Shown here: positions 37,448 to 42,664 of the stretch, in pieces
Position numbering within the stretch: the first letter of the stretch is position 1
How the letters are laid out: every line of letters begins with the position of its first letter
Source: Thermoproteota archaeon
GTDB taxonomy: Archaea; Korarchaeota; Korarchaeia; Korarchaeales; Korarchaeaceae
Assembly: GCA_027491435.1 (NCBI GenBank)
Contig: JAOZFG010000021.1
Span: forward strand, 1 to 44,802
Length of the DNA stretch: 44,802 bases
Direction of reading: 5' to 3'
The notes under the pieces: generated by a model
The model's input: the letters and a program-made list of their open reading frames with translations, nothing else
Told to the model about the DNA's origin: nothing
The model's database searches: none
Made by a program: the position numbers and the translations under genes

Positions 37448-39265
37448 TCAGTGCAGCAAAAGCTCCCTGGCCTTGACGGGATCCCAGTTCCTCTTCCTGA
37501 CCACTGGCTCCTGCCTTCCCTTGTACCTCTTGGACCCCCTACTTATCAGGTCAGCTGATTCGAGCTTTGTGAGCAACCCTTCAACGTACTGATCTAGCGT
37601 GTCATCGGACATGCTCTTCTTGTTCTTCTTGAGTTGTTGCCTGACCCCCCTCTTGATGACCCTGAGCGACTTCTCCCTCTTGGCCTCTTCCAGGAGCTCT
37701 ATTATGGTCTTAGCTATTATCACCTCCGCAGGCTCCTCTCTTAGAGTTGTGACCTTCTGAATATCTTCCATGGCCTTGGCCCCTACCACCAGCTCGTACA
37801 GAAGCAAGTCCAGGTTCCAGACAGATAGGAACAACCTCTCCATTAGGTCAAATCCCTCAGAGAACTCATCCTTGGTAGAAAGGCCTGCGAGTAGGGCTAG
37901 CCTCGTCGGGTAGGGGACTACTAAGGCTGGATAGGGCCCCTCGTACCCCTTCAACTCCCTCATTATGTCCAGAACCTCCTCCTTTCTGTCAGGCTCCAAA
38001 GCTATGATTCCGAGGAGGCCGCACTTCGCCAACTTCTTCCAATCGGAAAGCACCCTCCCCTTAGCTTGGGAGAACTTCACTTCCACAGGTACCCTGGCGA
38101 CCTCCCTGAAAGTATCGGCTAGCTGCTTGCTTATCAGTATGTGTCCGTCGCTCTCCTTCCTCCCACACTTCAAGTTCTCCGGCCTGTATTCGACGAAGTA
38201 GTGGTCTTCCTCCACCTGTATACCAGTGGCCATTCTCCTCTCCAGCACCCTTTTGACGAAGTTCTCGAAGGCCAGGCCTGCATCCTTCTTGTACCCCTTG
38301 CCGAACCTCTTCTCCATGGCGGCTATCTCCCTCTCAAGGGCTGAGAGGGAGAATTTAGAGAAGAACTCCGCCGCTGGGTCTATAACGTCTATCATGGTAG
38401 TGTTGGCCTCGCTTATCGACCCCTTGGATAGCCTATCGGAGATCATGTAGATAACTTCGGATATGAAGACCAGCTCGTCGTGAGCGAAGTTTCTCCCCTT
38501 AGCTATTGAGATTAGGGAAGCTATCCTCCCGAACCCCTCGGGCAGGTAGCCCCTGTAAGAGCCTGACACGGCCACCCTATCCTTCATAAAAGTGGAGAAC
38601 CTCTCGGTTCTCTTGTCCTTCTGAACCCTCTCCAGGTCCTCGCCAGTCATGTAGAAGATCATGTAGAGGCCCTTGTCCATTTTATCGTGTATGGAAGTGA
38701 GTAGGTCTAACCACTTGTACAAGAGATCCCCCCTCAACTTCTCAAACTCGTCCAAGTGGACGTTAATCACACCGAAGATATCCCGAACCAACAGCAGGGC
38801 GTCAGCCAGGGAGTTTCCCCTCAAATCCTTTGAAGACATCAGATCCAAGAGATCCAACACGGCAACCCTGTCGTCGGACTTATCTACCTGCTGGCTTATG
38901 GCCTCCAGGAGGGACGCTGTAAATGAGTTGGGATCCGGCCTCATGCCGAAGTCGTGCCCTACAACCAAGGCCTTCTCTCCCATGGCCTTGTGAATCAGGT
39001 ATTCCTTGAGCTGAGACTTTCCGCTCCTATAAGAGCCAATAACGAACGTGTACTGAATGCCCTCCTTGGCCAGGGCGAGCTTATCTGTCAGCTGCCTCTC
39101 GGCCTCTAGGACCCAGGGGAACTTGACTATCACCTTCTCAGCCAGCTCCCCTTTCAGGGGCTTGCCCAACCTGAGCAGGTTGACGGCGTCTAACGCCTCT
39201 TCCTGGGTGACTAGATCCCAGAGCCCGTACCTCTTGTAAGCCTCCACGAAGTCGTTCACCTTCAT
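37448..39265 (-). CDS. P-loop ATPase (BrxD/DUF2791-like) fused to a PD-(D/E)XK nuclease-like domain and a C-terminal wHTH
   Basis: Walker A GSYRSGKS, Walker B VHLDEFE, and GLAFENFV..ESDG..VEVK. Confidence 0.75.
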   Translation of the reverse strand: MKVNDFVEAYKRYGLWDLVTQEEALDAVNLLRLGKPLKGELAEKVIVKFPWVLEAERQLTDKLALAKEGIQYTFVIGSYRSGKSQLKEYLIHKAMGEKALVVGHDFGMRPDPNSFTASLLEAISQQVDKSDDRVAVLDLLDLMSSKDLRGNSLADALLLVRDIFGVINVHLDEFEKLRGDLLYKWLDLLTSIHDKMDKGLYMIFYMTGEDLERVQKDKRTERFSTFMKDRVAVSGSYRGYLPEGFGRIASLISIAKGRNFAHDELVFISEVIYMISDRLSKGSISEANTTMIDVIDPAAEFFSKFSLSALEREIAAMEKRFGKGYKKDAGLAFENFVKRVLERRMATGIQVEEDHYFVEYRPENLKCGRKESDGHILISKQLADTFREVARVPVEVKFSQAKGRVLSDWKKLAKCGLLGIIALEPDRKEEVLDIMRELKGYEGPYPALVVPYPTRLALLAGLSTKDEFSEGFDLMERLFLSVWNLDLLLYELVVGAKAMEDIQKVTTLREEPAEVIIAKTIIELLEEAKREKSLRVIKRGVRQQLKKNKKSMSDDTLDQYVEGLLTKLESADLISRGSKRYKGRQEPVVRKRNWDPVKARELLLH

Positions 39266-40017
39266 CCTACCACCAGCTTCGACGTTAGGAGGTCATCTTC
39301 GCTCCAGAGCGAGTACAAGGTGGCTACTTCCCTTCCCCTCTGGAAGTCGAAGCTCACCAGGTCGTCGTTACTTTCCAGAACCCTCCTTTCACTTTCTGAA
39401 AGTTTCTCTGAAGGTATTGAAGTTGGAGGATCGTCAATGCCCTTATCCAGCCACAACTTAAAGAGATCAGGCCTTGGAGGATTCACAAGCCCCTTCTTAA
39501 TGGCTGAGAGAAGGCACCTTCTGAAGTAGGAGTCAGAAAACCCCTTGGATATGGCCCATTCCCTCAACTCCTTGACTTTGACCCCTCCGGACGAGAAGAT
39601 GTAAGCTGCTAGGGATAGAGAGCAGTCTGACGAGATGTAGAAGGCCTTCAAAGGTACTAGAGCACCTAAATTCCTTAAAGTGCTCTTCAGAGCCTTCCTG
39701 GCCCTTTCGCTCATGCTCCCGTCAAGCTTAGTCGTGATTCCCTCCCTCTGGTTTAGAGACTCAAGTAGCCTCCTTGCCAGCAGTTCCCTCAACTCCCCCC
39801 TGTCGTTGACCCTCACCTTCTCTAACTCCTCTTCACCCCTCAGCATCCCCGCTAAGATCAGCATGTTCAGCGTTTCTCTGGCCTTCCTCCTGCGCCCATA
39901 CCTCTTTTCTAAAAGTTTTAGGTAAGTTTCCCTGCTTCCACTCGGGGGAAGCTGTAGATAAAGCTCCCAGATCTCGTCGAACCTGAGGGCCCTTATTCCC
40001 GGAACCCTGTCCATCAA
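39262..40017 (-). CDS. Hypothetical basic protein, probable tandem wHTH
   Basis: 251 aa with helical segments ending LILAGML, LRNLGAL and AIKKGLV. ATGA overlap with the ATPase gene. Confidence 0.7.
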   Translation of the reverse strand: MMDRVPGIRALRFDEIWELYLQLPPSGSRETYLKLLEKRYGRRRKARETLNMLILAGMLRGEEELEKVRVNDRGELRELLARRLLESLNQREGITTKLDGSMSERARKALKSTLRNLGALVPLKAFYISSDCSLSLAAYIFSSGGVKVKELREWAISKGFSDSYFRRCLLSAIKKGLVNPPRPDLFKLWLDKGIDDPPTSIPSEKLSESERRVLESNDDLVSFDFQRGREVATLYSLWSEDDLLTSKLVVG

Positions 40018-40065: not shown

Positions 40066-40701
40066 ATGTGGCCGAAGTTGCTGCTGGTGGACTTGGATCA
40101 GACACTGGTGGACACGTTATACAGGTTCTATCTCACCCTCATCGAGATGCTCCCGGGAGAGATTAGTTGGTTGGGGTTCTTGACCCTCTTCAGAGAGGAT
40201 AGGCTTGATGAGATTGTACCAGAGCCCAGAGGAGTCTTTTGGAGTGAGTTTACCAGGAGGCTGTCTGAGAAGAGGACCTCAATGGACAGGGTTTACCCGG
40301 GAGCTGTTGAAGCGTTGTCAGCTATTAAGGCCAGGAAGGCCGTTGTAACCGGAAGGAACGTGGAGCCCGAGCTCATATGGGACGAGCTGATGGAGTTCGG
40401 AGTAGCTCATCTCTTCGAGAGGGTTTACACGGGTCATGGGGAGGGCTGGATGAAGGATCAGGTGCTTGAAAGGGCCTTGAGGGACTTCGGAGTGAGGGCC
40501 GATGAGGCGGTCATGGTAGGGGACTACTGGGTGGACGTGGCTTCAGCTAAGTCCTTAGGGATTAGGGTAGTGGCCGTCAGGACGGGGCTTGAGCCGGACG
40601 AGAGGCTGCTCATGCACGGGGCCGACCTTATAGTTGACGGGATATGGGACGTGGAGAGGGCTATCCTGCTGCTTAAAAGAGGCTTACAAACCTCCACTTA
40701 A
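40066..40701 (+). CDS. HAD-superfamily hydrolase (phosphoglycolate phosphatase-like)
   Basis: Motifs DLDQTLVDT, VVTG, K and MVGDYWVD. Confidence 0.92.
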   Translation: MWPKLLLVDLDQTLVDTLYRFYLTLIEMLPGEISWLGFLTLFREDRLDEIVPEPRGVFWSEFTRRLSEKRTSMDRVYPGAVEALSAIKARKAVVTGRNVEPELIWDELMEFGVAHLFERVYTGHGEGWMKDQVLERALRDFGVRADEAVMVGDYWVDVASAKSLGIRVVAVRTGLEPDERLLMHGADLIVDGIWDVERAILLLKRGLQTST

Positions 40702-41725
40702 GCCCCAACCTGTCGGCCTCCTCATAAGCTCTCCTCAGTTCCTCCTTTTTAGGCCTTCTAGCTATCTCCCTGTAGTTGTAGGCCTTGTACTCTGGCCTAT
40801 ATTGCTCCATGATATTCACCAGGCTGTTAGGGACGTTCTCCGCTATCCACCTCAATATTGGGATTGTACAGCATTCCACGTGGTTTGGAAGCACTAGGTG
40901 CCTTATCACCATCTCCCCCAAAGTGTAGGCCATTCTTAAGTTCCTGGTCACCGTCTCCCTGTACCTAGGTATTCCGCTGTACTTCCTGGCGTGCTCATCG
41001 TCCCAGTACTTGAAGTCTGGAAGCCAGAGATCCACTACGCCTAGAAGCAGCCTAGTCGCTGGCTCGCTCATGTACATGTTTGAATTCCAGACCACCGGGA
41101 AGTCCGCTTTAGCGTACTTAAGGGCCTCTATTATGTAGGGCAAATTGGGGGTGGGCTCCCCTCCAACCAGGTTCACGTTTCTGGCCCCCCTGTACCTTAG
41201 GGAGTCCATTATGGAGGCCAACTCCTCTGAGGTCGCCTCCCTCCCAGACTTGGGGTATTGGGAGATATCCCAGTTCTGGCAGAAGACGCACTTGAAGTTG
41301 CACCCGGAGAAGAAGATTGTGCCTGACGGGGTTATGGGCGGTTCCTCCCCCATGTGGATGAAAGCGCTGGACACTCTGGGCCTGGTCACCCTGCAAACCC
41401 CTATTTCACCGTTCAGCCTGTTGATCCCACACTTCCACTCGCATAAGGAGCATCTCCCAGCCAACTTCTTGGCTAGCTGTACCTTCAGGTCTAGTAAGGT
41501 TATTCCTTCCCCTCCTGAACGCTCACATCCGTCTAAGCACTCCCTAAGCATTTGCATGCCTTCCTCATGAGCTTCCCAGGGATCGTCCTTCACCTGAACC
41601 CGGACCATCTGAGCTATCCTGAAGAGCGGCCTCTCCTTGCCCAGGACAACGTCCACGTACCTTCGTAAGGTTTCCCTGACCTCTTGAACTTCAAAGGCCA
41701 TCAGAGCATCTGGCCTCATCCACAT
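40673..41725 (-). CDS. PflX-like radical SAM Fe-S protein
   Basis: Motifs CSLCEWKCGINR, HMGEEPPI, GTIFFSGCNFKCVFCQN and RHLVLPNH. Start placed at 41725 (GGTGAAGG RBS) instead of 41836. Confidence 0.92.
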   Translation of the reverse strand: MWMRPDALMAFEVQEVRETLRRYVDVVLGKERPLFRIAQMVRVQVKDDPWEAHEEGMQMLRECLDGCERSGGEGITLLDLKVQLAKKLAGRCSLCEWKCGINRLNGEIGVCRVTRPRVSSAFIHMGEEPPITPSGTIFFSGCNFKCVFCQNWDISQYPKSGREATSEELASIMDSLRYRGARNVNLVGGEPTPNLPYIIEALKYAKADFPVVWNSNMYMSEPATRLLLGVVDLWLPDFKYWDDEHARKYSGIPRYRETVTRNLRMAYTLGEMVIRHLVLPNHVECCTIPILRWIAENVPNSLVNIMEQYRPEYKAYNYREIARRPKKEELRRAYEEADRLGLKWRFVSLF

Positions 41726-41735
41726 GTCCTTCACC

Positions 41736-41760
41736 AAAAAGGAAGGTGGAGGTGCGGTGG
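41736..41760 (-). terminator. Pyrimidine-rich tail and T5 tract downstream of the structured RNA
   Basis: The minus strand reads CCACCGCACCTCCACCTTCCTTTTT directly before the pflX-like RBS. Confidence 0.45.
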
Positions 41761-41761
41761 G

Positions 41762-41892
41762 GGGACTGCCCGGGTGGAGGGTTAAGAGCGGCGTCCCCTG
41801 TGCGGGGACTCGGGGCCAACAGGGGGCCCCTTTCACAGCAGTAGACGCCTACCCCCGCAGCGGGTTTAGACCCGCCAAGGCCGGGCAGTCCC
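41762..41892 (-). ncRNA. Unassigned GC-rich structured RNA (~131 nt)
   Basis: Perfect 12-bp terminal inverted repeat GGGACTGCCCGG/CCGGGCAGTCCC enclosing several hairpins; TATA box upstream and T-tract downstream on the minus strand. Confidence 0.75.
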
Positions 41893-41916
41893 CATTAATA
41901 GAAGGGGGCTAGGGGG

Positions 41917-41923
41917 TATATAA
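41917..41923 (-). promoter_or_regulatory. TATA box for the structured RNA
   Basis: Minus-strand TTATATA preceded by purine-rich GAAAAGGG (BRE-like), ending 24 nt before the first G of the terminal stem. Confidence 0.6.
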
Positions 41924-42036
41924 CCCTTTTCGGGCGGATTAAAGCCCGGCAGGGGGCTCAATCGATCTGCAGGTTCGTCGTGAGATCTGTTATTTTTGAT
42001 ATTATTTTATAGGGGTCTACTTTACGAGTATTACCG

Positions 42037-42267
42037 ATGAGTGTAACCATCTCAGCCAAGGTCAAGAGGGACCTGTGGGAAAAGGCCAAGAGGATGGGGA
42101 TCAACATAAGCGAGGTGATAAGGGAGGCTCTTGAGAGGAAGGTCAGAGAGGAGGAATTGAAGTGGGCTGTGAAGGTGATGGATGAGATCTCCGGCAGGAT
42201 AAGCTTGGATGAAGATTCATACAGGATAATTAGGAGGGAGAGGGACAGAAATGGCAATCGTTCTTGA
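42037..42267 (+). CDS. vapB: VapB-type antitoxin (RHH, CcdA-like)
   Basis: MSVTISAKVKRDLWEKAKRMGINISEVIREALERKV; overlaps the start of the PIN gene. Confidence 0.88.
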   Translation: MSVTISAKVKRDLWEKAKRMGINISEVIREALERKVREEELKWAVKVMDEISGRISLDEDSYRIIRRERDRNGNRS

Positions 42268-42664
42268 CGCCAGCGCCGTAGCTAAGCGGTTCGTTAAAGA
42301 GGAAGGGTCTGATGACATGAGGCTGTTAAGGGAGATGATAGTTTCTGAACAACTCGAAGCTCATGCTCCCTAGCTTATCTTGGTGGGGATAGCCAACTTA
42401 TTCAGGTACGCTAGGAACTCCACATCTGATGACGCTCAAAAGGCAATAAGAGCTCTGGAGGTGTTGCTCCACCTTCAGGGTGATGGAGCCTTGCTTCAAA
42501 AGGCTATAAAGCTAGCTTTTAACGAGGGAATCACTGTTTACGACTCATTGTACGTGACGTTAGCTTTAGACTTGAAAGCAAAGCTAATAACCTACGATAA
42601 GGAGCTCCTCTCCAAGTTTAAAGGAGTAGCGTTGAAGGCCGGGGATTTCCTCAGAGATGATTAG
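42251..42664 (+). pseudogene. vapC: VapC PIN toxin interrupted by an in-frame TAG at 42371-42373
   Basis: MAIVLDASAVAKRFVKEEGS...HAP*LILVGIAN...ITVYDSLYVTLA...LITYDKEL reads in one frame. Confidence 0.88.

Follow-up and report, generated by a model that had tools for sequence, protein, structure and literature searches.

The window, the whole 44,802-nt stretch of DNA analyzed here, carries a GC-rich structured element on its minus strand, placed between a TATA box and the start of a radical-SAM gene. The features of this locus are listed below in the order of the minus strand.

41924-41932, minus strand: purine-rich, BRE-like stretch preceding the TATA box
41917-41923, minus strand: TATA box TTATATA, about 30 nt upstream of the RNA start
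41761-41893, minus strand (41893→41761): predicted structured RNA, 133 nt, 71% GC, closed by a 13-bp stem
41881-41893, minus strand: 5' strand of the closing stem P1, a perfect 13 bp with 41761-41773
41851-41875, minus strand: 5' hairpin region, in which the hairpin 41860-41875 forms in the source genome
41812-41830, minus strand: central hairpin, the most conserved part, with a 6- to 8-bp G-rich/C-rich stem and a 7-nt loop C-N-N-N-R-U-U
41790-41809, minus strand: 3' hairpin, its 3' strand kept in the genus and its 5' partner re-registered in the source genome
41761-41773, minus strand: 3' strand of P1, pairing with 41881-41893
41726-41760, minus strand: C/U-rich tail, 35 nt, holding a T5 run (41736-41740) and a GGTGA Shine-Dalgarno (SD) site
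40673-41725, minus strand: pflX, a PflX-like radical-SAM gene, 350 aa, co-oriented with the RNA, Pfam Radical_SAM at 2e-18, ATG at 41725

The 350-aa protein, presumably a PflX of COG1313, has its closest relatives in thermophilic archaea. No NCBIfam family reaches its cut-off for this protein, and the only PDB match was PFL-activating enzyme (E = 1e-5). Neither of these sources gives a function for PflX, nor does the Atlas, where the matches are generic radical-SAM clusters. The gene begins 35 nt downstream of the RNA, in a gap without room for a separate pflX promoter. On the plus strand, at 42037-42664, an RHH antitoxin-like gene is followed by a PIN-type gene split by an in-frame stop (pieces 42251-42373 and 42380-42664); this pair stands where relatives have an endonuclease-IV-like gene. 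Two overlapping minus-strand open reading frames at 37448-40017, of 605 aa (with a P-loop-like motif) and 251 aa, had no Pfam or NCBIfam match. The convergent AAA_17 kinase-like gene that is conserved 3' of pflX in relatives (L113-L141), and the lone Cas6-like gene found there as well, are absent from the window.

An initial annotation of this DNA had described a 12-bp closing stem (41762-41773/41881-41892), three hairpins, a TATA box, and the T5 run, and we found every one of them in place. The stem extends by one further pair to a perfect 13 bp (41761-41773/41881-41893). All three hairpins (41793-41809, 41812-41830, and 41860-41875) form in the source genome, but the one at 41812-41830 is alone in being family-wide; the other two occur in shifted registers among relatives, and the parts common to the family are the closing stem and the central hairpin. 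The helix that is conserved in the 5' hairpin region of genus relatives lies one register downstream, at the equivalent of about 41851-41865, and this helix (helix 2) is paired in 95% of alignment cells with no compensatory changes. The GC content is, as had been claimed, much above that of the flanks: 71%, compared with 47% in the 200 nt on the promoter side, 55% in the 200 nt on the gene side, and 51.8% genome-wide. The folding z-score was -3.0 for the minus strand, with equal stability in 1 of 200 dinucleotide shuffles, and -2.7 for the plus strand (3 of 200). Perfect stems of at least 13 bp spanning 90 to 200 nt occur at 12 places in the 1.64-Mb genome, and such a stem is therefore not unique. 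It is conservation with compensatory changes, not the stem alone, that raises the element above chance.

When we took 30 pflX loci from the class, the element was found upstream of 29, the one exception belonging to another family. We then searched with R2, a covariance model for the whole family; 19 of the sequences went into building it and so match by construction. R2 found a single copy in 33 of 36 genomes of one Korarchaeota family, in every case immediately followed by pflX or its remnant. The three family genomes without a match are 70 to 72% complete. R2 had no match in 41 other archaea, at 68 other pflX loci, or in 7 further genomes from the phylum, of which 5 were searched a second time at E up to 5. 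The pattern of the central hairpin gave 6 metagenome matches, none of them backed by a second model, R1 (best E = 0.17), and no match in viral sequences. The same RNA occurs in a record named Ca. Methanodesulfokora, which places the source lineage in Korarchaeota. The homologues are 127 to 154 nt long, and the locus is fixed across five genera. In the source window, the link between the RNA and pflX survived although both flanks changed.

The homologues support both the fold and its strand. Pairing holds in 97.5% of 564 cells of the genus alignment, where 4 of 32 pairs have changed at both positions; none of 500 shuffles reached the genus covariation score, and slid controls were 37 to 52% paired. 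For the family alignment, such two-sided changes number 7 among 16 pairs, although kin are not independent and such counts are not probabilities. Compensatory changes were seen in P1 and in the central hairpin. The first 10 pairs of P1 in 30 homologues comprise 283 Watson-Crick, 16 G-U, and 1 A-C of 300, a 16:1 excess of G-U over A-C when read on the minus strand, in a count biased by a stem-finding script that allowed G-U. The stem sequence of the central hairpin is conserved beyond the needs of pairing. Its loop has 7 nt in 25 of 30 homologues and 8 nt in the other 5; in the 7-nt loops, C at position 1, a purine at position 5, and U at position 6 are found in 25 of 25 and U at position 7 in 24 of 25, and positions 2 to 4 vary freely. 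The side helices vary, being branched in four genera and forming an unbranched rod with internal loops in one. The source-genome copy is the most divergent of its genus, with 13 of 70 otherwise invariant sites substituted.

This distribution allowed us to judge whether the element acts as DNA, as a MITE or a cruciform, and not as RNA. The perfect 13-bp terminal inverted repeat is what such an element would have. However, there is a single copy at a fixed locus across five genera, the G-U wobbles favor one strand, and the spacing from the TATA box, described below, is fixed. The initial annotation had named dispersed copies as the sign of a MITE; none were dispersed, and with a single copy in 33 of 33 genomes we rejected the MITE. 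We regard a DNA-level role as the most improbable of the explanations considered here.

All 30 homologues have a TATA-like box 27 to 32 nt ahead of the closing stem. This fixed spacing suggests that transcription probably starts at the P1 stem, and the predicted 5' end of the RNA is the first G of P1 or adjacent to it. The minus-strand RNA with its own promoter, as proposed in the initial annotation, gains support from all 30 homologues, as well as from the apparent survival of the RNA after loss of the downstream gene in a relative (see below). The terminator proposed at the T5 run fared differently. The run is present and adjoins the SD site of the next gene, but a run of five T's occurs in only 1 of 29 homologue tails, and it is therefore not a feature of the family. 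What recurs is a pyrimidine-rich beginning: the first 18 nt of the tail are at least 72% pyrimidine in 22 of 30 homologues. The tail can fold over the SD site and start codon. In two genera (L130-L134), an extra GC-rich structured segment of 80 to 110 nt lies between P1 and the pflX start; it has a conserved CCUCC motif, able to base-pair close to the start codon. The RNA is predicted to head the transcript unit of pflX. This arrangement was absent from the initial annotation, and it keeps alive the reading of the RNA as a leader of that gene.

We asked whether the RNA matches a known family. At gathering thresholds, Rfam 15 gave no match in the whole window, the best local match having 14.5 bits against a cut-off of 60, and a search of seven homologous loci at E up to 3 found nothing at the element. 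RF00373 and RF02357 had no match there, and ARAGORN found no genes in the window. The Rfam search proposed in the initial annotation therefore returned no known family for the window, the locus, or the seven homologous loci, and its statement that there is no tRNA, 5S, SRP, or RNase P signature agrees with these results and with the 5S and SRP genes found elsewhere in the genome. New-family status is provisional. In the literature on Korarchaeota RNAs and on PflX/COG1313, supplements and subscription papers lying outside the search, we found no description of this RNA.

Another reading is a highly diverged housekeeping RNA (RNase P, 5S, SRP, H/ACA guide, or Y RNA). For RNase P, the source genome encodes Rpp29 and Pop5, yet neither RNase P RNA nor a HARP-type PIN_5 gene was detected in it, which suggested that the element replaces RNase P RNA. 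However, of 20 relatives in the genus, 14 carry normal RNase P RNA, so the element is not the sole candidate, and 13 of the 14 also have the element. On the ground of this coexistence we rejected replacement. A gene for A-type RNase P RNA in Korarchaeota has been published (PMC7191817). At 99.5% marker completeness, the source genome yielded no RNase P RNA, tRNA-Met, or tRNA-Trp, and its 16S is assembled for the first ~300 nt only. Since the rRNA operon too is mostly unassembled, an assembly gap is the simpler account of the missing RNase P RNA, and all of these absences are probably assembly gaps. A match to type-T RNase P RNA was observed on another contig (G000:C17:36850-37021, minus strand; L106) at 29.7 bits and E = 1e-4, below the cut-off of 60.

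The other housekeeping candidates fared no better. 5S and SRP RNA were ruled out by their canonical genes elsewhere in the source genome, and Y RNA by the finding of Ro60/TROVE in none of 43 genomes, with the control positive in 2 of 14. The weak match noted above is to the H/ACA RNA PyrR207 (E = 9.8) and lies on the opposite strand. Neither an ACA box nor a K-turn was seen by eye in the alignments, and the rRNA pocket was checked in part, the rRNA operon of the source genome being mostly unassembled. Antisense matches to 5S, SRP, tRNAs, and the assembled part of 16S did not exceed 10 nt. A guide antisense to stable RNAs was rejected on the same ground, its best matches being 9 to 10 nt and not common to three homologues; 12-nt antisense matches genome-wide were scattered. 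Descent from a housekeeping RNA is thus already largely refuted, and we consider it very improbable.

Radical-SAM enzymes are known to modify RNA loops. The RNA could therefore be a substrate or ribonucleoprotein partner of PflX, a proposal that draws on the tight linkage of the two and on the central hairpin, whose 6-bp stem and 7-nt loop have the geometry of an anticodon arm. However, PflX is widespread in archaea without the RNA (none of the 68 other pflX loci has it), loop positions 2 to 4 vary freely, and the RNA persists in one genome, G003, without the enzyme. It is improbable that this relationship explains the RNA.

G003 belongs to the same genus and is 92% complete. Its RNA was found at 121.5 bits by model R1, which was built without the G003 sequence, and a search for pflX at E = 1e-30 was empty. 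What follows the RNA is an old pflX pseudogene, with 10 stops in 164 codons, a lost start codon, ~25 indel events, and large deletions that have removed much of the N-terminal part. We compared it with G019, the nearest relative of G003 examined. At second codon positions, 54 of 253 sites (21%) differ in pflX versus 219 of 3666 (6%) in intact neighbors, and 50% of the four-fold sites of the pseudogene differ. No intact pflX orthologue was found elsewhere in the G003 genome. Both genes that flank the RNA have decayed (G003:C16, ~56150-57700; L157, L164, L209), pflX and a divergent endonuclease-IV-like TIM-barrel gene, a joint loss that may hint at a role for PflX in DNA repair. The remaining genes compared in 19 kb are intact, and the decay is therefore not an assembly-wide error. 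The next intact gene downstream is convergent, which leaves the RNA no target in cis.

In contrast to the gene, G003 shares an unchanged promoter core with G019, and across 135 sites their RNAs show 15 differences and no indels. Among genus-invariant sites, 4 of 55 changed in the RNA versus 66 of 306 in the pseudogene (Fisher P = 0.015). Despite 7 stem changes, none of 42 pairs is broken, in a pair set whose helices P2 and Pb (8 of the 42 pairs) were chosen after the G003 copy had been seen. In neutral simulations with the pseudogene spectrum, this no-break outcome arose in none of 10,000 runs at the excess rate and in 79 of 10,000 at half that rate; it arose in 34 of 10,000 when the simulation was conditioned on 7 stem changes. 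The RNA identity of G003 and G019 is 89%, and intact pairs at a similar distance (81 to 89% PflX identity) have 87 to 96%. In six of the 7 stem changes, a weaker wobble has taken the place of a Watson-Crick pair, with a minimum free energy of -72.7 versus -81.3, so some relaxation is possible. At the level of sequence, these data demonstrate that the RNA is under purifying selection without pflX in one genome. An intact promoter and RNA after decay of the gene suggest that the RNA has a job of its own rather than just the control of pflX.

This bears directly on whether the RNA is purely a cis-acting 5' leader of pflX, such as a riboswitch, a protein-bound operator, or an RNA thermometer, in which the folded domain would sense a ligand or protein and gate the SD site and start codon through the tail hairpin. 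The RNA is always directly before pflX (33 of 33), with the start codon 19 to 97 nt away in the 24 tails, of 29, that were resolved, and the source genome does use a TPP riboswitch, a match to RF00059 at 66.4 bits (over the cut-off) that sits in a long closing stem upstream of a gene (G000:C33:16752-16865, minus strand; L214). To assess gating, we ranked SD occlusion against the 421 SD-led genes of the source genome, for a set of 23 starts that leaves out the genera with longer leaders. Eight of the 23 starts, all from one related clade, rank in the top 14 and have a covarying hairpin that occludes the SD site; the other 15 are ordinary, and the SD opening energy of the source-genome pflX start ranks 89 of 421. 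When the SD site was forced open in the model, the predicted core was essentially unchanged, and we found no coupling between them. The RNA never occurs before a second gene, which means that there is no regulon, and the known riboswitch classes are described as sparingly used in archaea (PMC5473149). Judged as a riboswitch, then, the RNA does lie in the 5' leader of a protein gene, and its putative expression platform is a strong SD hairpin in 8 of 23 starts and an ordinary one in 15, without predicted coupling to the core. Further, it did not decay with its gene in G003, in one genome. A leader would have to explain the G003 copy as a slowly decaying relic, in which the promoter and all pairs were nevertheless retained through the long decay of pflX. 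A purely cis-acting leader is a possible but rather unlikely explanation.

The reading we favor, with moderate confidence, is that of a stand-alone small RNA that heads a two-part transcript, the RNA and then pflX, and whose invariant central hairpin probably binds a protein. This layout is like that of 6S RNA and ygfA. A stand-alone role is consistent with the single copy in 33 of 36 family genomes, the coincidence of the predicted 5' end with P1 in 30 of 30 homologues, the G-U excess on the minus strand, the ordinary SD sites at 15 of 23 starts, and the retention of the promoter and all pairs in G003. Against it stand the position of all 33 copies directly before pflX or a remnant, a link kept though both flanks changed in the source window, and the covarying anti-SD hairpin of one clade. 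Further, there is no conserved U-tract terminator, no candidate protein partner was found, and the decisive case is one metagenome-assembled genome in which 6 of 7 stem changes are weakening. Stand-alone and leader roles need not exclude each other.

A stand-alone RNA could be produced and used in four steps. Transcription would begin at P1 from the TATA promoter, as the fixed spacing suggests. P1, for which there is covariation, would then join the 5' and 3' ends into a unit that may resist nucleases. Many transcripts would be ended or trimmed in the C/U-rich tail, freeing an RNA of 127 to 154 nt, and those that read through would supply pflX mRNA, its start partly occluded by the tail. FttA reportedly has a preference for C/U. 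Most tails are C-rich rather than U-rich, which makes release of the aCPSF1/FttA type a weak step; cleavage by aCPSF1/FttA near U-rich tracts in archaea has been reviewed (PMC13675443). The freed RNA would act in trans, most likely as a scaffold or decoy for a family-specific protein recognizing P1 together with the central hairpin. pflX would then be a passenger on the promoter of the RNA, as ygfA is on that of ssrS (6S RNA).

Comparison of the sequences establishes the predicted structure of the RNA, its strand, its single copy, its linkage to pflX, and its promoter spacing. The family is real, undescribed, and specific to one Korarchaeota family, and an independent gene is more probable than a mere leader. 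The "possibly novel ncRNA" of the initial annotation is supported by the lack of an Rfam match, the single copy, the promoter spacing, and the apparent survival in G003. Apart from tRNA, rRNA, RNase P, SRP, and the modification guides, archaea are known to have very few kinds of stand-alone structured RNA. An RNA with its own promoter, kept in 33 of 36 family genomes and outliving the gene with which it is cotranscribed, would, if this is true, be a new entry among them. We suggest, tentatively, a broader role as a new class of stable archaeal RNA, present almost throughout a deep-branching family of Korarchaeota and selected despite the loss of its neighbors, which might form a ribonucleoprotein with a partner from the core machinery, for example as a 6S-like decoy of transcription or translation components. 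Even as a leader, it would bring a new gene-control RNA to the archaea and offer a way into the uncharacterized PflX-like radical-SAM family. The comparison with G003 makes the choice between leader and gene directly testable.

Four known systems resemble the element in part. Archaeal H/ACA guides (Pyrobaculum sR207, RF02805) share with it GC-rich hairpins in a thermophile and gave its weakest Rfam match (E = 9.8), but that match is on the wrong strand and far below the cut-off, and neither an ACA box after the stem nor a K-turn was seen. Archaeal RNase P RNAs of types A and T likewise have their own promoter, a long P1 that joins the ends, and a GC-rich, multibranched fold. Unlike them, the element is less than half the length of type A, has no match to RF00373 or RF02357, and coexists with normal RNase P RNA in 13 genomes. 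Translational riboswitch leaders, such as the TPP riboswitch (RF00059) of the source genome, are alike in that the mRNA begins with a P1-closed folded domain and continues into a tail that could mask the SD site. In contrast to riboswitch leaders, the RNA described here has no known aptamer and no regulon, shows strong SD occlusion at 8 of 23 starts only, has been kept after loss of its gene, and has its conserved nucleotides mostly in stems and one hairpin loop. The element differs from 6S RNA in being branched in four genera, shorter, archaeal, and without an Rfam 6S match, and RNA polymerase binding is not part of the likeness. The likeness is an analogy of layout: in both, a structured RNA with a long terminal stem stands ahead of an enzyme gene, and in one genus only the element is, like 6S RNA, an unbranched rod with internal loops. 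ssrS and ygfA are cotranscribed in a conserved arrangement (PMC2848244), and the RNA and pflX would be arranged in the same way.
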